Positions 1 to 34,342 of a stretch of 64,000 nt of DNA are shown here, one piece after another. The stretch is from Nemertoderma westbladi. Taxonomy: Eukaryota; Animalia; Xenacoelomorpha. Position 1 is the stretch's first letter. Each line of letters begins with the position of its first letter. The stretch lies in the NCBI GenBank assembly GCA_032718475.1, contig JAUCBJ010007015.1, forward strand, positions 9,407-73,406, in the 5' to 3' direction. The notes beneath the pieces are model-generated. The model searched no databases, was not told where the DNA came from, and saw only the letters and a program-made list of their open reading frames with translations. Both the position numbers and the translations under genes were made by a program.

Positions 1-3000
1 TGATACACCAATACTTGAGGTACTCACTTGCGGTACTTACATGATACACCAATACTTGCGGTACTTACATGATACACCAATACTTGAGGTACTCACTTGC
101 GGTACTTACATGATACACCAATACTTGCGGTACTTACATGGTACACCAATACTTGCGGTACTTACATGGTACACCAATACTTGATGTACTTACATGATAC
201 ACCAATACTTGCGGTACTTACATGGTACACCAATACTTTATGTACTTACATGATACACCAATACTTGCGGTACTTACATGATACACCAATACTTGAGGTA
301 CTCACTGCGGTACTTACATGATACACCAATACTTGCGGTACTTACATGGTACACCAATACTTGCGGTACTTACATGGTACACCAATACTTGATGTACTTA
401 CATGATACACCAATACTTGCGGTACTTACATGGTACACCAATACTTGATGTACTTACATGATACACCAATACTTGCGGTACTTACATGGTACACCAATAC
501 TTGCGGTACTTACATGGTACACCAATACTTGCGGTACTTACATGGTACACCAATACTTGATGTACTCACTTGCGGTACTTACATGGTACACCAATACTTG
601 CGGTACTTACATGATACACCAATACTTGCAGTACCTACATGGTACACCAATACTTGCGGTATTTACATGATACACCAACACTTTCGGTACTTACATGGTA
701 CACCAACACTTGCGGTACTTACATGATACACCAACACTTGCGGTACTTACATGGTACACCAACACTTGCGGTACTTACATGGTACACCAATACTTGCGGT
801 ACTTACATGATACACCAATACTTGCGGTACTTACATGATACACCAATACTTGCGGTACTTACATGGTACACCAATACTTGATGTACTTACATGATACACC
901 AATACTTGCGGTACTTACATGATACACCAATACTTGAGGTACTCACTGCGGTACTTACATGATACACCAATACTTGCGGTACTTACATGGTACACCAATA
1001 CTTGCGGTACTTACATGGTACACCAATACTTGATGTACTTACATGATACACCAATACTTGCGGTACTTACATGGTACACCAATACTTGATGTACTTACAT
1101 GATACACCAATACTTGCGGTACTTACATGGTACACCAATACTTGCGGTACTTACATGGTACACCAATACTTGCGGTACTTACATGGTACACCAATACTTG
1201 ATGTACTCACTTGCGGTACTTACATGGTACACCAATACTTGCGGTACTTACATGATACACCAATACTTGCAGTACCTACATGGTACACCAATACTTGCGG
1301 TACTTACATGATACACCAACACTTTCGGTACTTACATGGTACACCAACACTTGCGGTACTTACATGATACACCAACACTTGCGGTACTTACATGGTACAC
1401 CAACACTTGCGGTACTTACATGGTACACCAATACTTGCGGTACTTACATGATACACCAATACTTGCGGTACTTACATGATACACCAATACTTGCGGTACT
1501 TACATGATACACCAATACTTGAGGTACTCACTTGCGGTACTTACATGATACACCAATACTTGCGGTACTTACATGATACACCAATACTTGCGGTACTTAC
1601 ATGATACACCAATACTTGAGGTACTCACTTGCGGTACTTACATGATACACCAATACTTGCGGTACTTACATGATACACCAATACTTGAGGTACTCACTTG
1701 CGGTACTTACATGATACACCAATACTTGAGGTACTCACTTGCGGTACTTACATGATACACCAATACTTGCGGTACTTACATGATACACCAATACTTGCGG
1801 TACTTACATGATACACCAATACTTGCGGTACTTACATGATACACCAATACTTGCGGTACTTACATGGTACACCAATACTTGATGTACTCACTTGCGGTAC
1901 TTACATGGTACACCAATACTTGCGGTACTTACATGATACACCAATACTTGCAGTACCTACATGGTACACCAATAGTTGCGGTACTTACATGATACACCAA
2001 CACTTTCGGTACTTACATGGTACACCAACACTTGCGGTACTTACATGATACACCAACACTTGCGGTACTTACATGGTACACCAACACTTGCGGTACTTAC
2101 ATGGTACACCAATACTTGCGGTACTTACATGATACACCAATACTTGCCGTACTTACATGATACACCAATACTTGCGGTACTTACATGATACACCAATACT
2201 TGAGGTACTCACTTGCGGTACTTACATGATACACCAATACTTGCGGTACTTACATGATACACCAATACTTGCGGTACTTACATGATACACCAATACTTGA
2301 GGTACTCACTTGCGGTACTTACATGATACACCAATACTTGCGGTACTTACATGATACACCAATACTTGAGGTACTCACTTGCGGTACTTACATGATACAC
2401 CAATACTTGCGGTACTTACATGATACACCAATACTTGCGGTACTTACATGATACACCAATACTTGCGGTACTTACATGGTACACCAATACTTGCGGTACT
2501 TACATGATACACCAATACTTGCGGTACTTACATGATACACCAATACTTGATGTACTCACTTGCGGTACTTACATGGTACACCAATACTTGCGGTACTTAC
2601 ATGATACACCAATACTTGCGGTACTTACATGATAAACCAATACTTGAGGTACTTACATGGTACACCAATACTTGCGGTACTTACATGATACACCAATACT
2701 TGCGGTACTTACATGATACACCAATACTTGCGGTACTTACATGATACACCAATACTTGCGGTACTTACATGATACACCAATACTTGCGGTACTTACATGG
2801 TACACCAATACTTGATGTACTCACTTGCGGTACTTACATGGTACACCAATACTTGCGGTACTTACATGATACACCAATACTTGCGGTACTTACATGATAC
2901 ACCAATACTTGCGGTACTTACATGATACACCAATACTTGCGGTACTTACATGGTACACCAATACTTGATGTACTCACTTGCGGTACTTACATGGTACACC

Positions 3001-4241
3001 AATACTTGCGGTACTTACATGATACACCAATAGTTGCGGTACTTACATGGTACACCAATACTTGCGGTACTTACATGGTACACCAATAATTGATGTACTC
3101 ACTTGCGGTACTTAAATGATACACCAATACTTGCGGTACTTACATGATACACCAATACTTGCGGTACTTACATGGTACACCAATACTTGATGTACTCACT
3201 TGCGGTACTTACATGGTACACCAATACTTGCGGTACTTACATGATACACCAATACTTGCGGTACTTACATGGTACACCAATACTTGCCGTACATACATGA
3301 TACACCAATACTTGCGGTACTTACATGGTACACCAATACTTGATGTACTCACTTGCGGTACTTACATGGTACACCAATACTTGCGGTACTTACATGATAC
3401 ACCAATACTTGCGGTACTTACATGATACACCAATACTTGCGGTACTTACATGGTACACCAATACTTGATGTACTCACTTGCGGTACTTACATGATACACC
3501 AATACTTGATGTACTCACTTGCGGTACTTACATGATACACCAACACTTGCGGTACTTACATGGTACACCAATGCTTGCGGTACTTACATGGTACACCAAT
3601 ACTTGCGGTACTTACATGATACACCAATAGTTGCGGTACTTACATGGTACACCAATACTTGCGGTACTTACATGATACACCAACACTTGCGGTACTTACA
3701 TGGTACACCAATGCTTGCGGTACTTACATGGTACACCAATACTTGCGGTACTTACATGGTACACCAATACTTGATGTACTTACATGATACACCAATACTT
3801 GCGGTACTTACATGCTACACCAATACTTGCGGTACTTACATGGTACACCAATACTTGATGTACTCACTTGCGGTACTTACATGGTACACCAATACTTGAT
3901 GTACTTACATGATACACCAATACTTGCGGTACGTACATGGTACACCAATACTTGCGGTACTTACATGGTACACCAATACTTGCGGTACTTACATGGTACA
4001 CCAATACTTGATGTACTCACTTGCGGTACTTACATGGTACACCAATACTTGATGTACTCACTTGCGGTACTTACATGGTACACCAATACTTGCGGTACTT
4101 ACATGATACACCAATACTTGCAGTACCTACATGGTACACCAATACTTGCGGTACTTACATGATACACCAACACTTGCGGTACTTACATGGTACACCAACA
4201 CTTGCGGTACTTACATGATACACCAACACTTGCGGTACTTA
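1..4241. repeat. 28-bp tandem satellite, left arm (TACTTGCGGTACTTACATG[A/G]TACACCAA) with 41-bp variants carrying an extra 13 bp
   Basis: Continuous head-to-tail 28-mers from the window start to ...CACTTGCGGTACTTA at 4241, with no spacers. There is a 641-bp higher-order duplication (rare marker CTCACTGCGG at 301 and 942). Confidence 0.98.
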
Positions 4242-4587
4242 TTTAGATTAGATTATCGCGCAAACGCGCGCAGCACCAGTCTAGCTGGCATTTATTCAAA
4301 CAGTAAAAACTTAAAAATCATCAAAACATTAAAACCGCATTGAAAGTGAAGGTTAAAATGTACAGTAATAAAATGGTAGGTAAGTTACCGTTAAATGGGG
4401 TTACACAGCACGGCATTCTAAATGCACCCAAAACCAAAAAGCATCACGTCTTTTCACTACCCTAATTGTGAAGTGACATTAAAACCACAAATATCAGGAT
4501 ATATAATAGACCTCGTGTACTAAAATCCTGCTAGGTTTAAAATTAAACAATTGAATCAAACAATATCAAACATAACACGATCAAAAT

Positions 4588-4683
4588 CGAGAAATCTGCA
4601 CTGGGTACTGGGTAGACTCCTACTAGATTTACATTTAGAAACCCGAGAAATCTGCACTGGGTACTGGGTGGGTAGTCTCCTAC
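4588..4683. repeat. Direct duplication of ~36-40 bp in the LINE 3' UTR
   Basis: CGAGAAATCTGCACTGGGTACTGGGT...CTCCTAC at 4588-4623 and 4644-4683, with a degenerate third copy near 4755. Confidence 0.8.
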
Positions 4684-4862
4684 CGCTAAAATGCACGACA
4701 TACTGTATGGAACCCAAGATCGCGAAAATACAGAGGGTAAATCTCCTTAGATCTAGAAACTGCACAAGTACAGTGTAATCTACTTGGTTTACATAACAAA
4801 ATAGGCTACTAAGTGCGCGACATAATGCAGCTTAAAATGGAAAATTCACAGGCTATCATATC

Positions 4863-7800
4863 TCATAATTCAAATATTCTGAAATATTCTTTTATGTGCT
4901 TATGCTTTGAACGAAAAGATACACCTGGTATTGAAAAAGTGTTTGAAATAAAATTAGCTGACATTTGAGAAACTGCTGAGACTTCTGGGGGAGATAGTCG
5001 TTCCTTAAGCGATTTATCGCAGTACTGATAGTTGCACAGCGATTTAATCGAGGGAAGACTATGCTCTTGTATGGCATATCTTAACGTGCCCCCTAAGCCT
5101 TGATACGTCCCTGGATTTCCCAACGCGTTATTTTGAACACCCAACCTAAAACTCACTTGTAGATTGTAATTGGGAGTAGATAGACCTCGCAGTAGGGTCC
5201 CAAGACACGATCTATAGGCTCCCACAGATAAACTATCTGTTCCAAACAGATGGTTTAGTGTTTCATTCGACACATACGGCCCCAAGTGAAGCAAACCTCT
5301 CAGCTTCTGGCGATAATATGCATCTAACTTGGCTTTCTCAAATTTCTTCAGAGCACCAATCGAGTATTTGTGTCGGTATAAGAACGAGGATAAAGCAATT
5401 GATCTCCATAAAAGTGCCACTTTTTCCACTGGATAGTGTTTGGTAGTCCAACCTTGCTTATGGAATCGATCAGCCAATATTGCCAGAGCCTGGATTGTAT
5501 TAGCCAACACATTTACATTATTTTGCCAAGACCTTTGGATATTAACACCAAGGAAAGTTATCGACTGTGACATATCATGGTGTCGACCATTTAAAAACAG
5601 AGTTGGAGGCGGTTTATTCTCCGCTGTATTCCAAGGAGATAGATATATCCAATTTATCTTCGAGTCTTCCAACCGCAGCCCTAGTTTGGTTATGTGTGTT
5701 TCTATACGAGTTGCCAACTTCTCCATATCCCGTGGACAACTTGCCATCAGAAGGATGTCATCAGCATATCCAAGAGCACTAAACAACTCATTATATATTC
5801 GGCAACCAATCTTACTTTGACCATTGCATGAATAAATATTTGTAAACATCCCATTTGTGTAATAGTTAAACAGGGCTGGAGATAGAATGGACCCTTGTTT
5901 TATTCCATTAAGCATAGTGAAACCATTTTCCGATACAAGGCCATTTATGTTTATGAAAAGACGACTAAGCTGATAATAAACAACCAGAATTCTACAGATG
6001 TACGGATTGATGACATCGGACATCCTCTGAAACAATTTAATCTGGTCGACTCCGTCATATGCCGCCGAGATATCCAGCTGACAAACGTATACTCCAGATC
6101 CATGCCTGCGATAATGTTCTATACACTCAAGTACAGCACTGAGAATTACATCACTGCCAATTCCCGATTGATAAGCCAACTGCTGAGGACTGGGTTCCAG
6201 AAAAAGATACTCCCTAAGTAATACTCCTTCGAGTACCTTGCCAAATATACTGATAGATGATATTGGACGATATGACGATGGTGCACAAACATCCTTTTTC
6301 TTCCCTTTGTAGATACAGGTGACTACAGTCTCCCCAAAGAAATCAGGCAGGCATCCTAGAGATATGGACTCATTTAATAACTTTGTTACGTGGTAGCACA
6401 CAACTTCTTTCTCCGAATATAAAAGGTGCTCTACAGTCATCATCTGCTTGTCTGGGGACTTATTTCTGTTGAGAAGTAAGATTGTCCGTTCAACCAACCT
6501 TTCAGAAATGACTGGTGCCTCAGTTTGACTACAAGCTGAACTTAGCTTCTCAAGTAAACTATTTATATTTTTCGGTTGAGAACTGTCCTTTTGTAGCTGA
6601 TTACATAAATAGTCGGTGAGAGGACCTCTCATGGATTCAGCCGTGGTATCTTTCCGTTTATTATTTACAAAATTCCAAAATCCACTTGGGTTGTGTCTGT
6701 AACTGCCAATTAAATGATCAATGCGCTTGGATAAGTGTTGCTTGGTGAGCCAGTTTTTAAGGTGCCTCGTTGCACGCTTGGAATCTTGAAACATCTGTCC
6801 AAAAGTGTCACCCGAATCCTTACCCCTTTCACACCAAATATTATATAACTTTTTAGATGTTTGGCATCTTTCCAGTAATTTTTTATTTCGCACCCTGATA
6901 TTGTTCGACTTCTTTTTGTGCTGTTTCTTGGGTATATATTCATAGGCAGTATCATAAAATATTGCTTTCAGCGCATGACCGTACCAATCTATATCCCTCT
7001 TTGTCCACTTTCGATCAAAACAGGAAACAATGTCCTTTAGCCTATTCAACTTGTGCTCGGTTTCTTGCATATACTTAGATAGCTTTTCCTTACTGCACTT
7101 TTCCCACGCAAAACGATGTATCCTTTGTACATTTTTTGTTGAAATTTTTTCTTTTTCTTCACGTTTTACTTCTAGTTTAAAACAAACGAGGACTGGGACA
7201 TGATCAGAATTATTGTGAACCTCATCCATACCAAAAACGAAGCCTTGATGAATACTATTTGCTCCAGACCTAGATGTCACTATGTGATCGATGTATGATT
7301 TGTTGCGTCCATGAAAAGTTACAGTTGGACCTTGAAAAGCTGAGAATGTGTCCACTGCATGAATACCTTGTTGCATTAAAAACTCATGAAATATTTTTCC
7401 CCTAGCTGATGCATGTTCTCGACCAAAACGCAGTCCCTGCAGAGGCCCAACATCAGCGTTGAAGTCGCCAATTAGTATCGGGAGACTATTTGGGTACGAC
7501 TTTAGGATGTTTGTCAGGCGACCTAAGAAGTCATAAAATTCACTAACTGGTTTACCAGCATCCGGAGCATATACATTCAGCACTAACAAATCCAAGTTAC
7601 CCAAAGTAGCCTTGATACCTATGATGTCATTGCTAGATTCGAGCGGCATAGTGTAGTCAAATAGGTTTTTCCTAATGAGCAAGCCGACTCCCCCACGAAC
7701 TACTGCACAATGTTTAGTTTGATGGCCAGGAATATATAGGCATTCATAATTATTTTTAAAGCTTTCACACCAAATTTTTTCACATTCCGTCCCATCCAAC

Positions 7801-8036
7801 CATAGTTCTTGTATTCCACAAATATCTACATTATGTTCATCCAACAATTTATCGACGTACATCATATTGCTAAGTGCTCCCCTTACATTAAAAGTCAGGC
7901 AGTTCAAATTAGTTTTGGTAACTACAGCAGAATTATTTTCTTTAAAATTGGTGCATTTTGCATCCAAGCCGGAGCCATTAGAATTGAGCGCTGTAGCACC
8001 ATCCTGAGCACCAGATCCATCTTTATTGTTAAACAC
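4863..8036 (-). CDS. LINE ORF2: apurinic-like endonuclease plus reverse transcriptase (1057 aa)
   Basis: APE motifs TFNVRG, GIQELW, NVYAP, IGDFNA, YIDHI and SDHVPV. RT motifs YRPIS, LDISAAYDGV, GIKQGSILSPALFN, GYADDILL and ITFLGV. The annotated start is GTG, and the first AUG lies at codon 58. Confidence 0.96.
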   Translation of the reverse strand: MFNNKDGSGAQDGATALNSNGSGLDAKCTNFKENNSAVVTKTNLNCLTFNVRGALSNMMYVDKLLDEHNVDICGIQELWLDGTECEKIWCESFKNNYECLYIPGHQTKHCAVVRGGVGLLIRKNLFDYTMPLESSNDIIGIKATLGNLDLLVLNVYAPDAGKPVSEFYDFLGRLTNILKSYPNSLPILIGDFNADVGPLQGLRFGREHASARGKIFHEFLMQQGIHAVDTFSAFQGPTVTFHGRNKSYIDHIVTSRSGANSIHQGFVFGMDEVHNNSDHVPVLVCFKLEVKREEKEKISTKNVQRIHRFAWEKCSKEKLSKYMQETEHKLNRLKDIVSCFDRKWTKRDIDWYGHALKAIFYDTAYEYIPKKQHKKKSNNIRVRNKKLLERCQTSKKLYNIWCERGKDSGDTFGQMFQDSKRATRHLKNWLTKQHLSKRIDHLIGSYRHNPSGFWNFVNNKRKDTTAESMRGPLTDYLCNQLQKDSSQPKNINSLLEKLSSACSQTEAPVISERLVERTILLLNRNKSPDKQMMTVEHLLYSEKEVVCYHVTKLLNESISLGCLPDFFGETVVTCIYKGKKKDVCAPSSYRPISSISIFGKVLEGVLLREYLFLEPSPQQLAYQSGIGSDVILSAVLECIEHYRRHGSGVYVCQLDISAAYDGVDQIKLFQRMSDVINPYICRILVVYYQLSRLFININGLVSENGFTMLNGIKQGSILSPALFNYYTNGMFTNIYSCNGQSKIGCRIYNELFSALGYADDILLMASCPRDMEKLATRIETHITKLGLRLEDSKINWIYLSPWNTAENKPPPTLFLNGRHHDMSQSITFLGVNIQRSWQNNVNVLANTIQALAILADRFHKQGWTTKHYPVEKVALLWRSIALSSFLYRHKYSIGALKKFEKAKLDAYYRQKLRGLLHLGPYVSNETLNHLFGTDSLSVGAYRSCLGTLLRGLSTPNYNLQVSFRLGVQNNALGNPGTYQGLGGTLRYAIQEHSLPSIKSLCNYQYCDKSLKERLSPPEVSAVSQMSANFISNTFSIPGVSFRSKHKHIKEYFRIFEL

Positions 8037-11000
8037 GAATCCTCTTTCTTCTCCCTTCAGTTACCCTATAATGATATTGCTTGGGGCTGAAATCTCTTTC
8101 TACTGGATAAAGGCAGTTATCCAATTCTACATACTCTGACAAGTCTCTCTCTTTAAAGTCCAATGGAGTATTATAAGCAGTTGCGCGTTCTTCCCATCTA
8201 ACACAAGTGATACCATCTGGCCAGAAAGATGGCTCCAAAAGATCTTGTTTACAGTTTCTCTCCATAATGAGCTTCATGTTTTTAATTCCATCAAAGATTC
8301 TTGTGGTTATACGGTGAATACGTGCCCCGCGATGTTCTACATAGGCGACAATGTCTTCCTCTGTATGTTTGCAGTTGATACCATTTACAAAAAACACCTG
8401 TGATTCAAGTTGTTTTCTGCCATTATTTGAATTCCCCTTTTCTCTATGTGAGTCGTTTTCTTTTCTCTTAACATCATGTTTATCCATATCCCTACATGAA
8501 AAGTTGGTCTTTAAGTCTTTGTTCTTTGTTTCCATTTTATTATTCACTGTGACATTAATTGTGTTCAAATGTTGTTGTTTTGGAAGAGAGCTGGATTTTG
8601 TATTTGTAACACTTTCGGTACTTTCAGTCTGTTTTATCTCTGGAAAAGTGTACCTGTTAGAGACTGGTATCTGAAATGCGTGACTTCCGTTTTGATTAAT
8701 GAAGTTAACGCGTTTCCTTGTGCAATTCTTTGACTTGACTATGGTATATTCCGGTTCTTTCTTCCCAAAGGTATCAAGAACCTCATTATCTGTATCACCT
8801 ATGGAATCAATCACTATGAAACAGTCATCTTGGGATCCCTTGATTGATGCTTGACATACATTCTGAGCAATAGTTACACTTGTAATTGGTTTTTCTTTCA
8901 TAGGCTGTGTCTGATTGTTATCTTTAGTACTCTCAACTTGTTGTTCAGCATTCCCTTTGATCAATTTTGTTAATGTTTCCATCTGATACTGAAGGACGTT
9001 TCTCAGCCGTCTTTCATGCTCTAATTCTTCACGTAGAAAACCCACTTCTTGCTTTAATGATGTTATATGAGTCTCTGTCTGGCTGAGTCTACCTTGGAGT
9101 ACGGCAGAGGAATTTATACATTCCTGATGGACATCCTCCAGAGTTGTGGACCCATCACTGTTGAGCTCCTTCCTTTTAAGCCGGCGCTTGCAGCATTCTG
9201 TGAAATTGTTTGATTCTTTGCATTTGTAGATCTCATAAATGTCAGTGACCAGCTCCTTTAGTGCCGCCCTGGATCGTAGCTGCAATGTGACAGAGTTTGT
9301 TGGGGACATTAAAGATTTTATGTCAGTAAAAAATTGACTTCTCAAAACATTACATTCTTCAGTTGTGTACGTTTTCATCATCTGTTTAATCGCAAATTGT
9401 CGCGGTTGTTGCATGATCTGATGAAAAATTGATCCATCCGAAGTATTAATATGATTATTTTTCTGCTTATATCCAGGGTCTTCAGTGGAGTCAAAGGAAC
9501 TTGTTTCCTGGTTTCCCAATGAATTTTGTAGTCGCTTAGTAGAAACCGAATCCATACTTAGACAGAAATTCTCCTTATTTTTATCGAAAGTATTTTGATA
9601 TCTTTTTTCTCCTCGTTGTATCTGAGAAAAACTAAAGATACCTGCAGATTCAATTAGTTTGCATTCTGTCAGGCATTCAAGAATCCACTTGCGTGCTTTC
9701 GCACTATCAAACACCACATCTGGGAGAACAACAGTATTTAAACCGCAGGCTAGAGCATAGTAGCACACAAAAACTCCACAATCAATACTGTTTCTTTGTT
9801 TCGCGAATTTCCTTGTCGAGACAGCTGAAAACCAAATTTTTTTGTGTCTTTCTTCCGTTTCAGGAGACAGTTCATCAATTAATGCCAACAGTTTGCAGAT
9901 TTCCTCAGTAGTGGCTGTAGGTACATTTATATTTAGTGAATCAATACATTCAACTTGCCTGGTCAGGGTATCAGCTATATGAAGTATAAAATGATTGCTC
10001 TGACATTCCGGGAAGAAAATATATCTTGGTTGAAGACCATCAGTATTAAATTTTCCATAATAAGCCTTTGCAATATACTTCACAGCACTTAAATTATCGT
10101 AGACTCGTGTCCCTTCAACCCAGTCCAAAGATTGTAATTTAGTTGTAAGACAGCAACTAACGTAGGAAGTGTGAGGAATGTTTCGTTCAACTAAACTTAG
10201 AAACCCCTCAAGTATGGAGTCAGTTAGCCAATCTCGGGTGTTAAGGAGATTTAAATCTGCAACTGATTGAAGAACAAGTCCCCTAGTACCAGGCTTAGCA
10301 TCAGAACAACATTGCAAATAATCCTTAATTGCCTTTGAGTTGTCATGTCGAAAATTTGATTGACTACAGGGATAGACTTCTACGTGACAGGCTTGATTGA
10401 AATTCTTTGATCCCTCTACCAAGGCAGTTTCATGTTTCTCTTGATTTCCGGGACACTTACCAGCATAATGCGATGGCTGAAATGGAGCCACACCTGGGTC
10501 TAGTTGGTGTTGGTTTGATTTGTTTGCGCTCAAATTGGAAATCTCATACGAAATCTGATCCAGTGAACCAGAGACCAGCTCCCCATCCGGCTCCACCACA
10601 GCCCGATCCAATCCCAGATTTGTCGACCCAGAAGGTGAACCCTCGACCGGAGGAGAAGGAGGGTTGGATCCCGGAGATGGCGACCCGGAAGGTGAACTCT
10701 CAACTGGAGGAGATGGAGAAGGAGGGTTGGATCCCGGAGACGGCGACCCGGAAGGTGAACCCTCGACTGGAGGAGAAGCAGGGTTGGATCGCGGAGATGG
10801 CGACCCGGAAACGGAACCCTCGACTGGAGGAGAATGAGGGTTGGATCCCGGAGACGGCGACCCGGAAGGTGAACCCTCAACTGGAGGAGAAGGAGGGTTG
10901 GATCCCGGAGATGGCGACCCGGAAGGTGAACCCTCGACTGGAGGAGAAGGAGGGTTGAATCCCGGAGATGGCGACCCGGAAGGTGAACCCTCGACTGGAG

Positions 11001-11616
11001 GAGATGGAGAAGGAGGGTTGGATCCCGGAGATGGCGACCCGGAAGCTGAACCCTCGACTGGAGGAGAAGGAGAATTGGATCCCGGAGATGGCGACCCGGA
11101 AGGTGAGCCCTCGACCGGAGGAGAAGGAGGGTTGGATCCCGGAGATGGCGACCCGGAAGCTGAACCCTCGACTGGAGGAGGAGGGTTGGATACCGGAGTC
11201 GGCGACCCGCAAGGTACCGGTATCTTCCTTAATCTCCAAGATCCGTCGTCTGCCAGATCCTCTATCTTATAGGGGTCAGCGGAGTGATCCTTCTTTACAG
11301 TTAACTGGGGAACACTTTCTGTGTTCTTGGGATCTCCGGGTTTACCCAATACTGGTAGTCCTACCTTGTGGTTGTACACAGCCGATTTCCTCCTAAGGCC
11401 ATCTGGTACCGTAACCGGTTGGCCTACCGATAACGATTGTCTCCGCTTTAAATCCGCCGATTTACTTGAGGTAACAGAGCTGTTTGCTTTTCTACCGGAG
11501 TTAGAGCAGAGGCCGCGTTTATTTGGCGCACAGTTTGTACATTTCCTTTGGTCGTTAACGCAGCTACATTTATTGCAACGTCCCCTTGTAGCGGAACAGA
11601 CGCAGCAAGGTGCCAT
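8029..11616 (-). CDS. LINE ORF1 (1195 aa): CXC-like Cys cluster, Pro/Ser repeats, Ulp1/SENP-like C48 protease, coiled coil, C-terminal RRM-like domain
   Basis: N-terminus CCVC...CNKCSC...CTNC...C. C48 motifs WLTDSIL, NHFIL, CIDSL and QRNSIDCGVF. Heptad region LSQTETHITSLKQEVGFLREEL. FFVNGI...LLEPSFWPDGITCVRW is typical of the RRM-type ORF1 of CR1/L2-group LINEs. Confidence 0.92.
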   Translation of the reverse strand: MAPCCVCSATRGRCNKCSCVNDQRKCTNCAPNKRGLCSNSGRKANSSVTSSKSADLKRRQSLSVGQPVTVPDGLRRKSAVYNHKVGLPVLGKPGDPKNTESVPQLTVKKDHSADPYKIEDLADDGSWRLRKIPVPCGSPTPVSNPPPPVEGSASGSPSPGSNPPSPPVEGSPSGSPSPGSNSPSPPVEGSASGSPSPGSNPPSPSPPVEGSPSGSPSPGFNPPSPPVEGSPSGSPSPGSNPPSPPVEGSPSGSPSPGSNPHSPPVEGSVSGSPSPRSNPASPPVEGSPSGSPSPGSNPPSPSPPVESSPSGSPSPGSNPPSPPVEGSPSGSTNLGLDRAVVEPDGELVSGSLDQISYEISNLSANKSNQHQLDPGVAPFQPSHYAGKCPGNQEKHETALVEGSKNFNQACHVEVYPCSQSNFRHDNSKAIKDYLQCCSDAKPGTRGLVLQSVADLNLLNTRDWLTDSILEGFLSLVERNIPHTSYVSCCLTTKLQSLDWVEGTRVYDNLSAVKYIAKAYYGKFNTDGLQPRYIFFPECQSNHFILHIADTLTRQVECIDSLNINVPTATTEEICKLLALIDELSPETEERHKKIWFSAVSTRKFAKQRNSIDCGVFVCYYALACGLNTVVLPDVVFDSAKARKWILECLTECKLIESAGIFSFSQIQRGEKRYQNTFDKNKENFCLSMDSVSTKRLQNSLGNQETSSFDSTEDPGYKQKNNHINTSDGSIFHQIMQQPRQFAIKQMMKTYTTEECNVLRSQFFTDIKSLMSPTNSVTLQLRSRAALKELVTDIYEIYKCKESNNFTECCKRRLKRKELNSDGSTTLEDVHQECINSSAVLQGRLSQTETHITSLKQEVGFLREELEHERRLRNVLQYQMETLTKLIKGNAEQQVESTKDNNQTQPMKEKPITSVTIAQNVCQASIKGSQDDCFIVIDSIGDTDNEVLDTFGKKEPEYTIVKSKNCTRKRVNFINQNGSHAFQIPVSNRYTFPEIKQTESTESVTNTKSSSLPKQQHLNTINVTVNNKMETKNKDLKTNFSCRDMDKHDVKRKENDSHREKGNSNNGRKQLESQVFFVNGINCKHTEEDIVAYVEHRGARIHRITTRIFDGIKNMKLIMERNCKQDLLEPSFWPDGITCVRWEERATAYNTPLDFKERDLSEYVELDNCLYPVERDFSPKQYHYRVTEGRRKRIRV
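10630..11200 (-). repeat. Coding 57/63-bp minisatellite in ORF1, about 10 copies of PPVEGSPSGSPSPGSNPPS(PS)
   Basis: GAACCC markers at 10871, 10928, 10985 and 11048 (spacing 57, 57, 63). All unit lengths keep the frame. Confidence 0.95.
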
Positions 11617-11719
11617 AATAATCTCACGATATTGATAGGTTATAATATTTCAGCAGTATTAGTACAGTGGTACTGCAAGGTGGGTTCTATATTTATTATT
11701 ACATATGATATTATTACAT

Positions 11720-20700: not shown

Positions 20701-23700
20701 TTACATGATACACCAATACTTGCGGTACTTACATGATACACCAATACTTGCAGTACCTACATGGTACACCAATACTTGCGGTACTTACATGATACACCAA
20801 TACTTGCAGTACTTACATGGTACACCAATACTTGAGGTACTTACATGATACACCAATACTTGCAGTACTTACATGGTACACCAATACTTGGGGTACTTAC
20901 ATGGTACACCAATAATTGCGGTACTTACATGATACACCAATACTTGCGGTACTTACATGATACACCAATACTTGCGGTACTTACATGATACACCAATACT
21001 TGCAGTACCTACATGGTACACCAATACTTGCGGTTCTTACATGATACACCAATACTTGCAGTACTTACATGGTACACCAATACTTGAGGTACTTACATGA
21101 TACACCAATACTTGCAGTACTTACATGGTACACCAATACTTGCGGTACTTACATGGTACACCAATACTTGCAGTACTTACATGGTACACCAATACTTGAG
21201 GTCCTTACATGATACACCAATACTTGCAGTACTTACATGGTACACCAATACTTGCGGTACTTACATGGTACACCAATACTTGCGGTACTTACATGATACA
21301 CCAATACTTGCGGTACTTACATGGTACACCAATACTTGCGGTACTTACATGATACACCAATACTTGAGGTACTTACATGATACACCAATACTTGCGGTAC
21401 TTACATGGTACACCAATACTTGCGGTACTTACATGATACACCAATACGTGAGGTACTCACTTGCGGTACTTACATGATACACAATACTTGCGGTACTTAC
21501 ATGATACACCAATACTTGCGGTACTTACATGATACACCAATACTTGCGGTACTTACATGATACACCAATACTTGCAGTACTTACATGGTACACAATAGTT
21601 GCGGTACTTACATGGTACACCAATACTTGCGGTACTTACATGGTACACCAATACTTGAGGTACTTACATGATACACCAATACTTGCAGTACTTACATGGT
21701 ACACAATAGTTGCGGTACTTACATGGTACACCAATACTTGCGGTACTTACATGATACACCAATACTTGCAGTACTTACATGGTACACCACTACTTGCGGT
21801 ACTTACATGGTACACCAATACTTGCGGTACTTACATGATACACCAATACTTGCAGTACTTACATGGTACACCAATACTTGCGGTACTTACATGATACACC
21901 AATACTTGCGGTACTTACATGGTACACCAATACTTGAGGTACTTACATGGTACACCAATACTTGCAGTACTTACATGGTACACCAATACTTGCGGTACTT
22001 ACATGGTACACCAATACTTGCGGTACTTACATGATACACCAATACTTGCAGTACCTACATGGTACACCAATACTTGCGGTACTTACATGGTACACCAATA
22101 CTTGCGGTACTTACATGGTACACCAATACTTGCAGTACTTACATGGTACACCAATACTTGCGGTACTTACACGGTACACCAATACTTGCGGTACTTACAT
22201 GGTACACCAATACTTGCGGTACTTACATGGTACACCAATACTTGCGGTACTTACATGGTACACCAATACTTGCAGTACTTACATGATACACCAATACTTG
22301 CGGTACTTACATGGTACACCAATACTTGCGGTACTTACATGGTACACCAATACTTGCGGTACTTACATGGTACACCAATACTTGCGGTACTTACATGGTA
22401 CACCAATACTTGCAGTACTTACATGATACATCAATACTTGCGGTACATACATGATACACCAATACTTGAGGTACTTACATGATACACCAATACGTGAGGT
22501 ACTTACATGATACACCAATACTTGAGGTACTTACATGGTACACCAATACTTGCAGTACTTACATGGTACACCAATACTTGCGGTACTTACATGGTACACC
22601 AATACTTGCCGTACATACATGATACACCAATACTTGAGGTACTTACATGGTACACCAATACTTGCAGTACTTACATGATACATCAATACTTGCGGTACAT
22701 ACATGATACACCAATACTTGAGGTACTTACATGATACACCAATACGTGAGGTACATACATGATACACCAATACTTGAGGTACTTACATGCTACACCAATA
22801 CTTGCGGTACTTACATGATACACCAATATTTGCGGTACTTACATGGTACACCAATACTTGCGGTACTTACATGATACACCAATACTTGCGGTACTTACAT
22901 GGTACACCAATACTTGAGGTACTTACATGGTACACCAATACTTGCCGTACATACATGATACACCAATACTTGAGGTACTTACATGATACACCAATACTTG
23001 AGGTACTTACATGATACACCAATACTTGAGGTACTTACATGGTACACCAATACTTGCAGTACTTACATGATACATCAATACTTGCGGTACATACATGATA
23101 CACCAATACTTGCGGTACATACATGATACACCAATACTTGAGGTACTTACATGATACACCAATACTTGAGGTACTTACATGGTACACCAATACTTGCGGT
23201 ACTTACATGATACACCAATACTTGCGGTACTTACATGGTACACCAATACTTGAGGTACTTACATGATACACCAATACTTGCAGTACCTACATGGTACACC
23301 AATACTTGCGGTACTTACATGATACACCAATACTTGCGGTACTTACATGATACACCAATACTTGCAGTACCTACATGGTACACCAATACTTGCGGTACTT
23401 ACATGATACACCAATACTTGCAGTACCTACATGGTACACCAATACTTGCGGTACTTACATGATACACCAATACTTGCAGTACCTACATGGTACACCAATA
23501 CTTGCGGTACTTACATGATACACCAATACTTGCGGTACTTACATGATACACCAATACTTGCAGTACCTACATGGTACACCAATACTTGCGGTACTTACAT
23601 GATACACCAATACTTGCAGTACCTACATGGTACACCAATACTTGCGGTACTTACATGATACATAATACTTGCGGTACTTTCATGATACACCAATACTTGC

Positions 23701-26700
23701 GGTACTTACATGATACACCAATACTTGCAGTACCTACATGATACACCACTACTTGAGGTACTCACTTGCGGTACTTACATGATACACAATACTTGCGGTA
23801 CTTACATGATACACCAATACTTGCGGTACTTACATGATACACCAATACTTGCGGTACTTACATGATACACAATACTTGCGGTACTTACATGATACACCAA
23901 TACTTGCGGTACTTACATGATACACCAATACTTGCAGTACCTACATGGTACACCAATACTTGCGGTACTTACATGATACACCAATACTTGCAGTACCTAC
24001 ATGATACACCAATACTTGAGGTACTCACTTGCGGTACTTACATGATACACAATACTTGCGGTACTTACATGATACACCAATACTTGCGGTACTTACATGA
24101 TACACCAATACCTGCGGTACTTACATGATACACAATACTTGCGGTACTTACATGATACACCAATACTTGCGGTACTTACATGATACACCAATACTTGCAG
24201 TACCTACATGGTACACCAATACTTGCGGTACTTACATGATACACCAACACTTGCAGTACCTACATGGTACACCAATACTTGCGGTAGTTACATGATACAC
24301 AATACTTGCGGTACATACATGGTACACCAATACTTGAGGTACTCACTTGTGGTACTTACATGATACACAATACTTGCGGTACTTACATGATACACCAATA
24401 CTTGCGGTACTTACATGATACACCAATACTTGCAGTACCTACGTGATACACCAATACTTGAGGTACTCACTTGCGGTACTTACATGGTACACAATACTTG
24501 CGGTACTTACATGATACACCAATACTTGCGGTACTTACATGATACACCAATACTTGCAGTACCTACATGATACACCAATACTTGAGGTACTCACTTGCGG
24601 TACTTACATGATACACAATACTTGCGGTACTTACATGATACACCAATACTTGCGGTACTTACATGATACACCAATACTTGCGGTACTTACATGATACACC
24701 AATACTTGCAGTACCTACATGGTACACCAATACTTGCGGTACTTACATGGTACACCAATACTTGCAGTACCTACATGGTACACCAATACTTGCGGTACTT
24801 ACATGATACACCAATACTTGCGGTACTTACATGATACACCAATACTTGCAGTACCTACATGGTACACCAATACTTGCGGTACTTACATGGTACACCAATA
24901 CATGCAGTACCTACATGGTACACCAATACTTGCGGTACTTACATGATACACCAATACTTGCAGTACTTACATGGTACACCAATACTTGAGGTACTTACAT
25001 GATACACCAATACTTGCGGTACTTACATGATACACCAATACTTGCAGTACCTACATGGTACACCAATACTTGCGGTACTTACATGGTACACCAATACTTG
25101 CAGTACCTACATGGTACACCAATACTTGCGGTACTTACATGATACACCAATACTTGCGGTACTTACATGATACACCAATACTTGCAGTACCTACATGGTA
25201 CACCAATACTTGCGGTACTTACATGGTACACCAATACTTGCAGTACCTACATGGTACACCAATACTTGCGGTACTTACATGATACACCAATACTTGCAGT
25301 ACTTACATGGTACACCAATACTTGAGGTACTTACATGATACACCAATACTTGCAGTACTTACATGGTACACCAATACTTGGGGTACTTACATGGTACACC
25401 AATAATTGCGGTACTTACATGATACACCAATACTTGAGGTACTTACATGATACACCAATACTTGCGGTACTTACATGATACACCAATACTTGCAGTACCT
25501 ACATGGTACACCAATACTTGCGGTACTTACATGATACACCAATACTTGCAGTACTTACATGGTACACCAATACTTGAGGTACTTACATGATACACCAATA
25601 CTTGCAGTACTTACATGGTACACCAATACTTGCGGTACTTACATGGTACAACAATACTTGCAGTACTTACATGGTACACCAATACTTGAGGTACTTACAT
25701 GATACACCAATACTTGCAGTACTTACATGGTACACCAATACTTGCGGTACTTACATGGTACACCAATACTTTCGGTACTTACATGATACACCAATACTTG
25801 CGGTACTCACTTGCGGTACTTACATGATACACCAATACTTGAGGTACTTACATGATACACCAATACTTGCGGTACTTACATGGTACACCAATACTTGAGG
25901 TACTTACATGATACACCAATACTTGCGGTACTTACATGGTACACCAATACTTGCGGTACTTACATGATACACCAATACTTGAGGTACTCACTTGCGGTAC
26001 TTACATGATACACAATACTTGCGGTACTTACATGATACACCAATACTTGCGGTACTTACATGATACACCAATACTTGCGGTACTTACATGATACACCAAT
26101 ACTTGCAGTACTTACATGGTACACAATAGTTGCGGTACTTACATGGTACACCAATACTTGCGGTACTTACATGGTACACCAATACTTGAGGTACTTACAT
26201 GATACACCAATACTTGCAGTACTTACATGGTACACAATAGTTGCGGTACTTACATGGTACACCAATACTTGCGGTACTTACATGATACACCAATACTTGC
26301 AGTACTTACATGGTACACCACTACTTGCGGTACTTACATGGTACACCAATACTTGCGGTACTTACATGATACACCAATACTTGCAGTACTTACATGGTAC
26401 ACCAATACTTGCGGTACTTACATGATACACCAATACTTGCGGTACTTACATGGTACACCAATACTTGAGGTACTTACATGGTACACCAATACTTGCAGTA
26501 CTTACATGGTACACCAATACTTGCGGTACTTACATGGTACACCAATACTTGCGGTACTTACATGATACACCAATACTTGCAGTACCTACATGGTACACCA
26601 ATACTTGCGGTACTTACATGGTACACCAATACTTGCGGTACTTACATGGTACACCAATACTTGCAGTACTTACATGGTACACCAATACTTGCGGTACTTA

Positions 26701-29700
26701 CACGGTACACCAATACTTGCGGTACTTACATGGTACACCAATACTTGCGGTACTTACATGGTACACCAATACTTGCGGTACTTACATGATACACCAATAC
26801 TTGCGGTACTTACATGGTACACCAATACTTGCGGTACTTACATGGTACACCAATACTTGCGGTACTTACATGATACACCAATACTTGCGGTACTTACATG
26901 GTACACCAATACTTGAGGTACTTACATGATACACCAATACTTGCAGTACTTACATGGTACACAATAGTTGCGGTACTTACATGGTACACCAATACTTGCG
27001 GTACTTACATGGTACACCAATACTTGCGGTACTTACATGATACACCAATACTTGCGGTACTTACATGATACACCAATACTTGAGGTACTTACATGATACA
27101 CCAATACTTGCGGTACTTACATGATACACCAATACTTGCGGTACTTACATGATACACAATAGTTGCGGTGCTTACATGATACACAATACTTGCGGTACTT
27201 ACATGATAGACGAATACTTGCGGTACTTACATGGTACACCAATACTTGCGGTACTTACATGATACACCAATACTTGCGGTACTTACATGATACACCAATA
27301 CTTGAGGTACTTACATGATACACCAATACTTGCGGTACTTACATGATACACCAATACTTGAGGTACTTACATGATACACCAATACTTGCGGTACTTACAT
27401 GATACACCAATACTTGCGGTACTTACATGATACACCAATACTTGCGGTACTTACATGATACACCAATACTTGCGGTACTTACATGATACACAATAGTTGT
27501 GGTGCTTACATGATACACAATACTTGCGGTACTTACATGATACACCAATACTTGCGGTACTTACATGATATACCAATACTTGAGGTACTTACATGGTACA
27601 CCAATACTTGAGGTACTTACATGATACACCAATACTTGCAGTACTTACATGGTACACAATAGTTGCGGTACTTACATGGTACACCAATACTTGCGGTACT
27701 TACATGATACACCAATACTTGAGGTACTTACATGATACACCAATACTTGCGGTACTTACATGATACACCAATACTTGCGGTACTTACATGATACACCAAT
27801 ACTTGCGGTACTTACATGATACACCAATACTTGCGGTACTTACATGATACACAATAGTTGTGGTGCTTACATGATACACAATACTTGCGGTACTTACATG
27901 ATACACCAATACTTGCGGTACTTACATGATACACCAATACTTGAGGTACTTACATGGTACACCAATACTTGAGGTACTTACATGATACACCAATACTTGC
28001 AGTACTTACATGGTACACAATAGTTGCGGTACTTACATGGTACACCAATACTTGCGGTACTTACCTGATACACAATACTTGCGGTACTTACATGGTACAA
28101 CAATACTTGCAGTACTTACATGGTACACCAATACTTGAGGTACTTACATGATACACCAATACTTGCAGTACTTACATGGTACACCGATACTTGCGGTACT
28201 TACATGGTACACCAATACTTGCGGTACTTACATGATACACCAATACTTGCGGTACTCACTTGCGGTACTTACATGATACACCAATACTTGAGGTACTTAC
28301 ATGATACACCAATACTTGCGGTACTTACATGATACACCAATACTTGCGGTACTTACATGGTACACCAATACTTGCGGTACTTACATGATACACCAATACT
28401 TGAGGTACTCACTTGCGGTACTTACATGATACACAATACTTGCGGTACTTACATGATACACCAATACTTGCGGTACTTACATGATACACCAATACTTGCG
28501 GTACTTACATGATACACCAATACTTGCAGTACTTACATGGTACACAATAGTTGCGGTACTTACATGGTACACCAATACTTGCGGTACTTACATGGTACAC
28601 CAATACTTGAGGTACTTACATGATACACCAATACTTGCAGTACTTACATGGTACACAATAGTTGCGGTACTTACATGGTACACCAATACTTGCGGTACTT
28701 ACATGATACACCAATACTTGCAGTACTTACATGGTACACCACTACTTGCGGTACTTACATGGTACACCAATACTTGCGGTACTTACATGATACACCAATA
28801 CTTGCAGTACTTACATGGTACACCAATACTTGCGGTACTTACATGATACACCAATACTTGCGGTACTTACATGGTACACCAATACTTGAGGTACTTACAT
28901 GGTACACCAATACTTGCAGTACTTACATGGTACACCAATACTTGCGGTACTTACATGGTACACCAATACTTGCGGTACTTACATGATACACCAATACTTG
29001 CAGTACCTACATGGTACACCAATACTTGCGTTACTTACATGGTACACCAATACTTGCGGTACTTACATGGTACACCAATACTTGCAGTACTTACATGGTA
29101 CACCAATACTTGCGGTACTTACACGGTACACCAATACTTGCGGTACTTACATGGTACACCAATACTTGCGGTACTTACATGGTACACCAATACTTGCGGT
29201 ACTTACATGATACACCAATACTTGCGGTACTTACATGGTACACCAATACTTGCGGTACTTACATGGTACACCAATACTTGCGGTACTTACATGATACACC
29301 AATACTTGCGGTACTTACATGGTACACCAATACTTGAGGTACTTACATGATACACCAATACTTGCAGTACTTACATGGTACACAATAGTTGCGGTACTTA
29401 CATGGTACACCAATACTTGCGGTACTTACATGGTACACCAATACTTGCGGTACTTACATGATACACCAATACTTGCGGTACTTACATATGATACACCAAT
29501 ACTTGAGGTACTTACATGATACACCAATACTTGCGGTACTTACATGATACACCAATACTTGCGGTACTTACATGATACACAATAGTTGCGGTGCTTACAT
29601 GATACACAATACTTGCGGTACTTACATGATAGACGAATACTTGCGGTACTTACATGGTACACCAATACTTGCGGTACTTACATGATACACCAATACTTGC

Positions 29701-32700
29701 GGTACTTACATGATACACCAATACTTGAGGTACTTACATGATACACCAATACTTGCGGTACTTACATGATGCACCAATACTTGAGGTACTTACATGATAC
29801 ACCAATACTTGCGGTACTTACATGATACACCAATACTTGCGGTACTTACATGATACACCAATACTTGCGGTACTTACATGATACACCAATACTTGCGGTA
29901 CTTACATGATACACAATAGTTGTGGTGCTTACATGATACACAATACTTGCGGTACTTACATGATACACCAATACTTGCGGTACTTACATGATACACCAAT
30001 ACTTGAGGTACTTACATGGTACACCAATACTTGAGGTACTTACATGATACACCAATACTTGCAGTACTTACATGGTACACAATAGTTGCGGTACTTACAT
30101 GGTACACCAATACTTGCGGTACTTACATGATACACCAATACTTGAGGTACTTAAATGATACACCAATACTTGCGGTACTTACATGATACACCAATACTTG
30201 CGGTACTTACATGATACACCAATACTTGCGGTACTTACATGATACACCAATACTTGCGGTACTTACATGATACACAATAGTTGTGGTGCTTACATGATAC
30301 ACAATACTTGCGGTACTTACATGATACACCAATACTTGCGGTACTTACATGATACACCAATACTTGAGGTACTTACATGGTACACCAATACTTGCGGTAC
30401 TTACATGATACACCAATACTTGCGGTACTCACTTGCGGTACTTACATGATACACCAATACTTGAGGTACTTACATGATACACCAATACTTGCGGTACTTA
30501 CATGATACACCAATACTTGCGGTACTTACATGGTACACCAATACTTGCGGTACTTACATGATACACCAATACTTGAGGTACTCACTTGCGGTACTTACAT
30601 GATACACAATACTTGCGGTACTTACATGATACACCAATACTTGCGGTACTTACATGATACACCAATACTTGCGGTACTTACATGATACACCAATACTTGC
30701 AGTACTTACATGGTACACAATAGTTGCGGTACTTACATGGTACACCAATACTTGCGGTACTTACATGGTACACCAATACTTGAGGTACTTACATGATACA
30801 CCAATACTTGCAGTACTTACATGGTACACAATAGTTGCGGTACTTACATGGTACACCAATACTTGCGGTACTTACATGATACACCAATACTTGCAGTACT
30901 TACATGGTACACCACTACTTGCGGTACTTACATGGTACACCAATACTTGCGGTACTTACATGATACACCAATACTTGCAGTACTTACATGGTACACCAAT
31001 ACTTGCGGTACTTACATGATACACCAATACTTGCGGTACTTACATGGTACACCAATACTTGAGGTACTTACATGGTACACCAATACTTGCAGTACTTACA
31101 TGGTACACCAATACTTGCGGTACTTACATGGTACACCAATACTTGCGGTACTTACATGATACACCAATACTTGCAGTACCTACATGGTACACCAATACTT
31201 GCGGTACTTACATGGTACACCAATACTTGCGGTACTTACATGGTACACCAATACTTGCAGTACTTACATGGTACACCAATACTTGCGGTACTTACACGGT
31301 ACACCAATACTTGCGGTACTTACATAGTACACCAATACTTGCGGTACTTACATGGTACACCAATACTTGCGGTACTTACATGATACACCAATACTTGCGG
31401 TACTTACATGGTACACCAATACTTGCGGTACTTACATGGTACACCAATACTTGCGGTACTTACATGATACACCAATACTTGCGGTACTTACATGGTACAC
31501 CAATACTTGAGGTACTTACATGATACACCAATACTTGCAGTACTTACATGGTACACAATAGTTGCGGTACTTACATGGTACACCAATACTTGCGGTACTT
31601 ACATGGTACACCAATACTTGCGGTACTTACATGATACACCAATACTTGCGGTACTTACATGATACACCAATACTTGAGGTACTTACATGATACACCAATA
31701 CTTGCGGTACTTACATGATACACCAATACTTGCGGTACTTACATGATACACAATAGTTGCGGTGCTTACATGACACACAATACTTGCGGTACTTACATGA
31801 TAGACGAATACTTGCGGTACTTACATGGTACACCAATACTTGCGGTACTTACATGATACACCAATACTTGCGGTACTTACATGATACACCAATACTTGAG
31901 GTACTTACATGATACACCAATACTTGCGGTACTTACATGATACACCAATACTTGAGGTACTTACATGATACACCAATACTTGCGGTACTTACATGATACA
32001 CCAATACTTGCGGTACTTACATGATACACCAATACTTGCGGTACTTACATGATACACCAATACTTGCGGTACTTACATGATACACAATAGTTGTGGTGCT
32101 TACATGATACACAATACTTGCGGTACTTACATGATACACCAATACTTGCGGTACTTACATGATACACCAATACTTGAGGTACTTACATGGTACACCAATA
32201 CTTGAGGTACTTACATGATACACCAATACTTGCAGTACTTACATGGTACACAATAGTTGCGGTACTTACATGGTACACCAATACTTGCGGTACTTACATG
32301 ATACACCAATACTTGAGGTACTTACATGATACACCAATACTTGCGGTACTTACATGATACACCAATACTTGCGGTACTTACATGATACACCAATACTTGC
32401 GGTACTTACATGATACACCAATACTTGCGGTACTTACATGATACACAATAGTTGTGGTGCTTACATGATACACAATACTTGCGGTACTTACATGATACAC
32501 CAATACTTGCGGTACTTACATGATACACCAATACTTGAGGTACTTACATGGTACACCAATACTTGAGGTACTTACATGATACACCAATACTTGCAGTACT
32601 TACATGGTACACAATAGTTGCGGTACTTACATGGTACACCAATACTTGCGGTACTTACCTGATACACAATACTTGCGGTACTTACATGATACACCAATAC

Positions 32701-34053
32701 GTGCGGTACTTACATGATACACCAATACGTGCGGTACTTACATGATACACCAATACTTGCGGTACTTACATGGTACACCAATACTTGCGGTACTTACATG
32801 ATACACCAATACTTGAGGTACTCACTTGCGGTACTTACATGATACACAATACAGCGGTACTTACATGATACACCAATACTTGCGGTACTTACATGATACA
32901 CCAATACTTGAGGTACTTACATGATACACCAATATTTGCGGTACTTACATGATACACCAATACTTGAGGTACTCACTTGCGGTACTTACATGATACACAA
33001 TACTTGCGGTACTTACATGATACACCAATACTTGCGGTACTTACATGATACACCAATACTTGAGGTACTCACTTGCGGTACTTACATGATACACCAATAC
33101 TTGAGGTACTCACTTGCGGTACTTACATGATACACCAATACTTGAGGTACTCACTTGCGGTACTTACATGATACACAATACTTGCGGTAGTTACATGATA
33201 CACCAATACTTGCGGTACTTACATGATACACCAATACTTGCGGAACCAGCTGTACATGATACACCATTACTTTTCGGTACTTCATGATACACCAATACTT
33301 GCAGTACTTACATGATACACCAATACTTGCGGTACTTACATGATACACCAATAATTGCGGAACCAGCTGTACATGATACACCAATACTTGCGGTACTTAC
33401 AAGATAAACCAATACTTGCGGTACTTACATGATACACCAATACTTGCGGTACTTACATGATACACCAATACTTGAGGTACTTACATGATACACCAATACT
33501 TGAGGTACTTACATGATACACCAATACATGCGGTACTTACATGATACACCAATACTTGAGGTACTTACATGATACACCAATACTTGCGGTACTTACATGA
33601 TACACCAATACTTGCGGTACTTACATGATACACAATACTTGCGGTACTTACATGATACACCAATACTTGCGGTACTTACATGATACACCAATACTTGCGG
33701 TACTTACATGATACACCAATACTTGCGGTACTTACATGGTACACCAATACTTGAGGTACTCACTTGTGGTACTTACATGATACACCAATACTTGCGGTAC
33801 TTACATGATACACCAATACTTGAGGTACTTACATGATACACCAATACTTGCGGTACTTACATGATACACCAATACTTGCGGTGCTTACATGATACACCAA
33901 TACTTGCGGTACTTACATGATACACCAATACTTGCGGTACTTACATGATACACCAATACTTGCGGTACTTACATGGTACACCAATACTTGAGGTACTCAC
34001 TTGTGGTACTTACATGATACACCAATACTTGCGGTACTTACATGATACACCAA
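11720..34053. repeat. 28-bp tandem satellite, right arm (~22.3 kb), with kb-scale higher-order repeats; its last unit overlaps the PLSCR exon
   Basis: Same unit as 1-4241. A 2935-bp duplication is shown by rare markers at 13431/16366, 13601/16536 and 14461/17396. HORs of ~2.2-2.4 kb are shown by GATAGACGAAT at about 27205, 29628 and 31799. The array ends at ...CATGATACACCAA (34053). Confidence 0.98.
34036..34044 (-). promoter_or_regulatory. 5' splice donor CAT|GTAAGT of the PLSCR exon (first satellite unit)
   Basis: Perfect GTAAGT immediately after ...FGVS+T, at the point where scramblase similarity stops. Confidence 0.85.
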
Positions 34054-34268
34054 ACAAATCGGCATCAGTAAAGAGTTCCTTAGCGATCCCGCTGAATTTC
34101 TTTGCGATCTCACCAATAGGAGTTCCTCTACGATCCAGATGAGAATTGATGTTAAACGTCTTATCGAAACACCACAATATATCACATATAAGAAGTGGAC
34201 CCTTTATTCCGAATATAGGATAATGGTCCTTATCCAAAATTTCAAATCTTGGAGCTAATAAACTGCAT
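34042..34268 (-). CDS. PLSCR: Internal exon of a phospholipid scramblase (PLSCR/Scramblase family) gene
   Basis: Acceptor ...AAAATATTCACAG| and donor TCAT|GTAAGT bound 227 nt (1 nt + 75 codons + 1 nt) encoding CSLLAPRFEILDKDHYPIFGIKGPLLICDILWCFDKTFNINSHLDRRGTPIGEIAKKFSGIAKELFTDADLFGVS. This matches the scramblase pattern recalled from human PLSCR1 (PKFTI...KISGP...[25 protein letters not shown]). The leftover T fits the following Phe codon. Confidence 0.9.
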
Positions 34269-34300
34269 CTGTGAATATTTTATAAGTAAAAGAAATAAAC
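34269..34300 (-). promoter_or_regulatory. 3' splice acceptor of the PLSCR exon
   Basis: Minus strand reads GTTTATTTCTTTTACTTATAAAATATTCACAG|A, a T-rich tract plus CAG ahead of the open frame. Confidence 0.75.
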
Positions 34301-34342
34301 TTAATAATGATTACAGTCATTTTAGTGCGATTATTTATAATA

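Follow-up and report, generated by a model that had tools for sequence, protein, structure and literature searches.

Minisatellites whose first unit spans a splice donor include the 37-bp variable number tandem repeat (VNTR) in intervening sequence 7 (IVS7) of human F7 and the repeats of 6-16, CBS (IVS13), lamin B2 and PDGF (PMC1557585). In F7, which carries 5-9 units, the most upstream donor was found by mutagenesis to win (Borensztajn et al. 2006, PMC1557585). Amphioxus “mirage” minisatellites, described in Adh3, troponin C, the globins BflGb6 and BflGb9, and PGBD5, are reported to leave normal splicing undisturbed and show concerted evolution (PMC3087553, PMC3902484), and use of the first donor together with harmlessness is reported for F7, lamin B2, PDGF (PMC1557585) and the mirages (PMC3087553, PMC3902484). 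The 25-bp VNTR in intron 18 of human ABCA7 reaches 10,678 bp, or ~427 units (PMC5954066), and the Drosophila Y fertility genes kl-3 and kl-5 have satellite-filled giant introns of megabase size (PMC6508621). Here we describe a junction-spanning 28-bp repeat in a 64,000-nt stretch of the Nemertoderma westbladi genome (assembly GCA_032718475.1, contig JAUCBJ010007015.1, positions 9,407 to 73,406 of the forward strand; hereafter the window), where an exon of a phospholipid scramblase gene on the minus strand runs into at least 907 copies of its own donor junction. Such a minisatellite probably grew from a small junction duplication by ordinary repeat turnover, and has probably been tolerated because the most upstream donor is the one used.

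The scramblase exon and its splicing

The translation of positions 34267-34043 gives 75 residues that match the Pfam family Scramblase (PF03803, E = 8.3e-12; 45.3 bits against a cut-off of 25.4), the family to which a first-pass annotation, made from the letters of the window, had assigned the exon. A word-index homologue search of the exon peptide against longer proteins retained 0 of 45 candidates, and comparison with PDB gave no significant match. Four of eight sequencing runs were compared with the window. Two of them, X1 (study P1) and X4 (study P2), had been tagged “DNA?” by guess and were treated as complementary DNA (cDNA), because their contigs break at the GT boundary (both runs) and the AG boundary (X1) and then continue in frame. 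One contig of X1 (1003 nt) aligns to precisely 34042-34268, shows 0 differences and is loose at either end; in X4, a 380-nt contig departs from the window at 34042 and carries an identical 30-nt loose end. By manual reading, the downstream loose end continues in frame as F-P-H-D-L-D-V-T-M-K and the upstream loose end of the X1 contig ends in ...G-Y-V-R-Q-T, both of which are scramblase-like. The junction at 34042/34041 is the authentic donor, the most upstream of the series, in contigs of two studies, and it joins the exon to the F-P-x-D-L continuation that had been predicted. The contigs of X1 and X4 give no cover at 33960-34037; contig assembly loses rare variants, and the use of later donors may go undetected.

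The flanking exons had 0 matches within the 64-kb window at up to 3 mismatches, in line with the earlier remark that no downstream exon is in view; thus, the downstream intron must be longer than 34 kb and the upstream one longer than 29.7 kb. The working donor had been called a perfect U1 site, which is true of the intron side (GTAAGTA at +1..+7) but not of the whole -3..+8 consensus, to which it matches at 9/11 positions (-1 is T and +8 is C). Splicing at the donor at offset 28 would shift the frame and include no stop, and each of the six later donors examined (offsets 41-181) would include the in-frame TAA that overlaps this second donor (Table 1). The claim that only the first donor is productive thus holds for these later donors.

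A second version of the exon is present at 34051-34296 in both X2 and X3, the other two runs. Over 167 nt it shows 13 differences, together with an insertion of 3 nt that keeps the frame; seven codons are changed silently and five altered (K/E, I/V, E/K, R/K, D/E), and in X2 it has a different upstream intron; it is either a divergent allele or a young paralogue. Another transcript-like contig of X1 (1492 nt) matches the window at 34215-34255 alone, with 5 differences, and probably represents another scramblase paralogue.

Structure of the 28-bp array

On the minus strand the exon ends in ...TTTGGTGTATCAT and the intron starts with GTAAGTACCGCAAGTA, and these 12 exon bases and 16 intron bases are then reiterated. 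A 28-bp period was reported by Tandem Repeats Finder (TRF) at 26-4241 and 11761-34053, and the two segments of the satellite (4,241 and 22,334 bp) sum to 26,575 bp. A wrap-around parse against unit 1, with 13-nt half-units set aside, gave 907 complete 28-nt units of 86 distinct types. Since the left window edge cuts the array, these sizes are lower bounds (at least 26.6 kb and at least 907 units). The unit, its strand, the roughly 900 copies and the 26 kb or more of satellite given by the first-pass annotation were all recovered; the span of 1-34053 that it gave is 28-bp array on both flanks, but not over the 7,478-bp long interspersed element (LINE) at 4242-11719 that splits them.

Unit 1, which spans the junction, carries the majority base of the array at 28/28 positions, and the array units are ~95-98% identical to it. 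GT is kept in 900/907 complete units and GTRAGT in 819/907; all 819 minus-strand GTAAGTA heptamers of the window lie inside the array. Over both segments there are 909 GTRAGT sites (34-37 per kb), and each of the 89 half-units holds a second donor-like GTGAGT. The T at -4 of unit 1 is kept by 45 of the first 50 units and by roughly 45-70% of those deeper in the array; being commonest in the first 50 units, it fits growth of the array away from the junction. An exact tandem duplication with a period of 2,935 bp occupies 12351-18247 and could be a very recent expansion or an assembly error. Among 41 sampled 200-mers, 11 are shared exactly by the array on both sides of the LINE. Exact kilobase-scale duplications, of which the 2,935-bp one is an example, and the shared 200-mers suggest recent turnover inside the array.

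Two DNA runs, X2 and X3, which come from two studies, contain the 28-mer at high depth, which argues that the repeat is no invention of the assembly, although the assembled length may be inexact. Both runs behave as genomic, and one of them may be the window's own source. The summed 28-mer depth was ~73,000 in X2 and ~78,000 in X3, against 66 and 39 for the exon; the resulting array-to-exon ratios of ~1,100 and ~2,000 are summed contig depth rather than copy number, and they hint at a total on the order of a thousand units, mostly at this locus.

Several signals were sought within the array. Neither AATAAA nor ATTAAA occurs in its 26.6 kb (0 of each), and 0 acceptor-like sites (YAG after 11/14 pyrimidines) were found in both segments. 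Without an acceptor-like site the donors cannot define pseudo-exons or ratchet points, and the array should thus be cheap to carry. The array RNA folds no more stably than its shuffles (z = +1.11; 89/100 shuffles as good). Rfam gave no match anywhere in the window, and the 28-mer had 0 exact matches in a metagenome collection. Two further ideas were discarded: masking of decoy donors by RNA structure is ruled out by a fold no better than that of shuffles, and a recursive-splicing (ratchet) array, or intron gain by duplication of AG/GT, is rejected as no acceptor stands beside a donor in either segment.

Origin of the repeat

We compared the end of the exon with 92 homologues from a 50%-identity library. 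Residues specified by the exon bases of the unit are widely shared, with F in 90/92, G in 63/92 and V or I in 83/92. After the exon end, FP comes next in 72/92 and other residues that look spliced in 7; the remaining 13 have Cys and then unrelated sequence (CK in 6, CA in 2, CN in 2, and CL, CE and C). The window's own read-through is Cys-Lys, as expected from T/GT AAG at a phase-1 donor, and the 13 include a protein named as a scramblase of Holothuria leucospilota. At the same codon, these 13/92 homologues seem to run on into a phase-1 GT intron, and from their protein sequences we infer a shared intron position. Metagenomic scramblase loci (the best 80 of 545) were uninformative on intron position, 78 being spliced or intronless and 2 lacking the motif. 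An intron position shared with distant homologues suggests that the junction predates the repeat and that the repeat was copied from the junction. Together with an array consensus equal to unit 1, this makes derivation of the satellite from the exon-intron junction, as first proposed from the letters of the window, a well-supported reading of the sequences.

Tolerated expansion and its alternatives

The likely history would start with a small tandem duplication of the donor junction of the scramblase exon. Amplification would have followed by tandem-repeat turnover, such as slippage, unequal exchange or conversion, in a gene whose introns collect satellites. The first donor would be chosen through exon definition and co-transcriptional 5'-to-3' priority, as in human F7, and such first-donor priority would be the simplest account of donor choice. 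Transcripts using later donors would go to nonsense-mediated decay, and the array itself may have no selected function. Tandem arrays make up ~70% of the window, and in so satellite-rich a neighbourhood the size of the array can be explained without function. If the donors were maintained by selection, then their bases would be expected to change less than the rest of the unit. At donor positions +1..+6, mutation (allele) types per position are 2.0 vs 1.86 elsewhere, and context-clustered events are 6.0 vs 4.36; permutation P was 0.2-0.8 in all six donor-versus-other conservation tests, which rest on 132 clustered events and have low power. Simple tolerance had been listed among the options at first pass, and it is the best supported of them.

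Several observations weigh against this explanation. The array is young, with units so close to unit 1 and only the 132 clustered events, which makes the selection test weak, and positions +1, +2 and +5 do carry fewer events (2.67 vs 4.96, P = 0.29). GT is lost from just 7 of the 907 units, and the new 13-nt half-unit reads as a donor too. The array contains a LINE in the sense direction that carries 16 poly(A) hexamers, and there protection by U1 could matter. Rare isoforms are lost from assembled contigs, and use of later donors is possible; human 6-16, CBS and ABCA7 do use later donors (PMC1557585, PMC5954066).

An array with such decoys could serve, as that of ABCA7 does, as a dial that sets gene output according to array length, by diverting part of the transcripts to frameshifted or stop-containing forms for degradation, or by exon skipping. 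The decoy donors are identical to the working donor, and none of the later donors examined is productive; in ABCA7, retention of one unit and skipping of the exon go with the VNTR (PMC5954066), and 6-16 and CBS make use of two extra donors (PMC1557585). However, the first donor gives the only junction seen in two studies, the identical downstream donors of F7 do not compete (PMC1557585), and leakage would be limited to the nearest few units and leave 900 unexplained. A dial of this kind is thus unlikely.

Alternatively, the ~900 donor-like sites could have been co-opted as a landing strip for the U1 small nuclear ribonucleoprotein (snRNP), aiding elongation and curbing premature cleavage, notably at the LINE hexamers. 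GTRAGT sites number 34-37 per kb, and the upstream intron has 0.1 per kb; the LINE carries 10 AATAAA and 6 ATTAAA on the transcribed strand, and the sites would be open in an array RNA that is not unusually folded. Such suppression of premature polyadenylation by U1 (telescripting) is a published model, as described in PMC13322065; it had been called established, and this 2026 paper disputes its independence from splicing. PMC13322065 credits competition with splicing, not splicing-independent U1, for the repression of intronic poly(A) sites. Moreover, the array itself lacks both hexamers; the LINE came into a pre-existing array and cannot be the reason for it; the upstream intron, more than 29.7 kb long with 22 hexamers and 3 GTRAGT, is still spliced; and the donor bases show no excess conservation in the six permutation tests (132 events). 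We consider a selected landing strip quite unlikely, and the U1-loading array of the first-pass annotation, whether for telescripting, for feeding nonsense-mediated decay or for sequestering U1, is not borne out by donor bases that are not better kept, an array without hexamers and a donor-poor upstream intron. Sequestration in particular is unlikely, as ~900 sites on few nascent transcripts would face a U1 pool that in a mammalian cell is on the order of a million. Still less credence is given to a specific variant, in which an array born by chance was later co-opted so that a U1 strip of 26 kb or more, with a donor density (~34 per kb) over 300 times that of the neighbouring intron, carries polymerase through the giant intron and shields the 16 hexamers of the LINE.

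It is very improbable that the donor was brought in by the insertion of a dispersed satellite family, or that assembly error accounts for most of the array length, since, for all that the exact 2,935-bp duplication could be an assembly error, the first 12 nt of the unit encode conserved scramblase residues at an intron position shared with distant homologues, 86 unit types occur in complex higher-order patterns, the array-to-exon depth ratios (not copy numbers) are on the order of the 907 parsed units and far below a genome-wide satellite, and the metagenome collection holds no exact 28-mer.

Other features of the window

Coordinates of the main features are collected in Table 1. The LINE is apparently intact. 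Its first open reading frame (ORF1; 1206 codons stop to stop) contains a Ulp1/C48 peptidase-like domain (PF02902 Peptidase_C48, E = 3.7e-5, above the cut-off) preceded by a proline-rich 57-bp repeat, and ORF2 (1065 codons stop to stop) has endonuclease and reverse transcriptase (RT) domains, with relatives at most 33% identical. A probable 14-nt target-site duplication flanks the element, which was inserted after the array existed.

Table 1 Features of the scramblase locus in the 64,000-nt window
Feature	Coordinates	Strand	Details
Internal coding exon of a PLSCR-type phospholipid scramblase, 227 nt	34042..34268	-	Phase-2 acceptor (..TTCACAG), phase-1 donor
First 28-bp unit	34026..34053	-	12 exon nt + 16 intron nt; working donor GT 34041-34040; from sequence and X1/X4 contigs
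Exon part of unit 1	34042..34053	-	End of Phe, Gly, Val, Ser, first base of next codon
Second donor (GT 34013-34012)	34010..34013	-	+28 nt; overlaps in-frame TAA 34012-34010
First 13-nt half-unit	33988..34000	-	Diverged copy of intron +1..+13; donor-like GTGAGT, 8/11 match
Main 28-bp array	11720..34053	-	769 parsed units, 64 half-units, 753 GTRAGT (33.7 per kb)
Full-length LINE, APE-type (apurinic/apyrimidinic endonuclease), 7,478 bp	4242..11719	-	Apparently intact; same direction as host gene; interrupts array
Array beyond LINE	1..4241	-	141 parsed units, 25 half-units, 156 GTRAGT; leaves window
Upstream intron of same gene, >29.7 kb	34269..64000	-	Unrelated 21-bp and 79-bp satellites, transposon pieces; internal control

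The 22 hexamers of the upstream intron are AATAAA or ATTAAA, and its 3 GTRAGT are spread over 29.7 kb. An AT-rich 21-bp satellite of ~949 copies (TRF) occupies 34343-54909, with inserts, and ends 75 nt before the acceptor; some of its frames contain no stop for up to 2,086 codons, which could mislead gene callers. One insert, at 43063-47650, has a palindromic end (43063-43218), a 27-nt A run and a 693-bp direct repeat at 99.7% (44368-45060 and 45658-46350). A 79-bp satellite at 58298-60926 has 33 copies with 95% matches. Its unit resembles adjoining sequence (58298-61020) and a single copy 2 kb away (56327-56385), each near a plus-strand ORF with no Pfam match (55581-55889 and 61675-63075), and we read it as another locally captured repeat. 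On the plus strand, antisense to the host gene, 56733-58151 holds a truncated RT fragment of a second LINE (472 codons, RVT_1, E = 1.8e-31).

Comparison with known junction-spanning repeats

The scale of the locus is what gives it interest, as the spliceosome picks one of more than 900 near-identical donors, the first, and the first-donor rule of F7, known from 5-9 copies, is pushed by two orders of magnitude. A sense-strand LINE within the array and a donor-poor giant intron in the same gene provide a built-in comparison, which bears on a point in dispute, namely whether the binding of U1 within introns is enough by itself to suppress premature polyadenylation. If a role for U1 were true, the array would be a satellite with a direct RNA-processing function, binding the spliceosome, although nothing here demonstrates such a role; if it worked as a U1 strip, it would be a natural test bed for the splicing-independence of telescripting.

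The locus shows four features of a junction-spanning minisatellite: a unit as long as is usual for minisatellites (about 10-160 bp), a terminal unit on a real boundary, a reiterated signal and messenger RNA made from the authentic donor. With regard to another feature of such repeats, variation in length among alleles or individuals, the array-to-exon ratio differs between X2 (~1,100) and X3 (~2,000), in summed contig depth rather than copy number. It resembles the F7 type in that unit 1 crosses the exon-intron boundary, an identical donor is reiterated in the intron and the most upstream is used. Unlike F7 (5-9 units) and the others (at most about 25), it has at least 907 units in a higher-order arrangement, with a 13-nt donor-like half-unit nested in the array and a LINE inserted into it, and it is known from sequence and contigs. 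As in the amphioxus mirages, the exon-intron boundary is duplicated in tandem with splice signals in the copies, whereas the amphioxus globin mirage has 3-6 units. With kl-3 and kl-5 it shares small exons and introns that are swollen by tandem repeats and still spliced, although the introns there are megabase-sized. The repeats of kl-3 and kl-5 are simple satellites that are not known to be junction-derived.

The ABCA7 VNTR also begins at a donor, has a GT donor in each unit and reaches kilobase length. In the published description its unit begins with the GT and has no exon bases, whereas the unit here includes 12 exon nt, and the one-unit retention isoform and exon skipping documented for ABCA7 were not seen here in assembled contigs. 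In the literature covered, with few subscription papers within its scope, there was no junction-derived array longer than the 10.7 kb of ABCA7 and no U1-loading satellite. The present array, at 26.6 kb or more, is at least 2.5 times longer than the longest ABCA7 allele and is the longest junction-derived array among those found, with no claim on the whole literature. The type of repeat is already known (PMC1557585, PMC3087553, PMC5954066), and the novelty of the scramblase array is its size.

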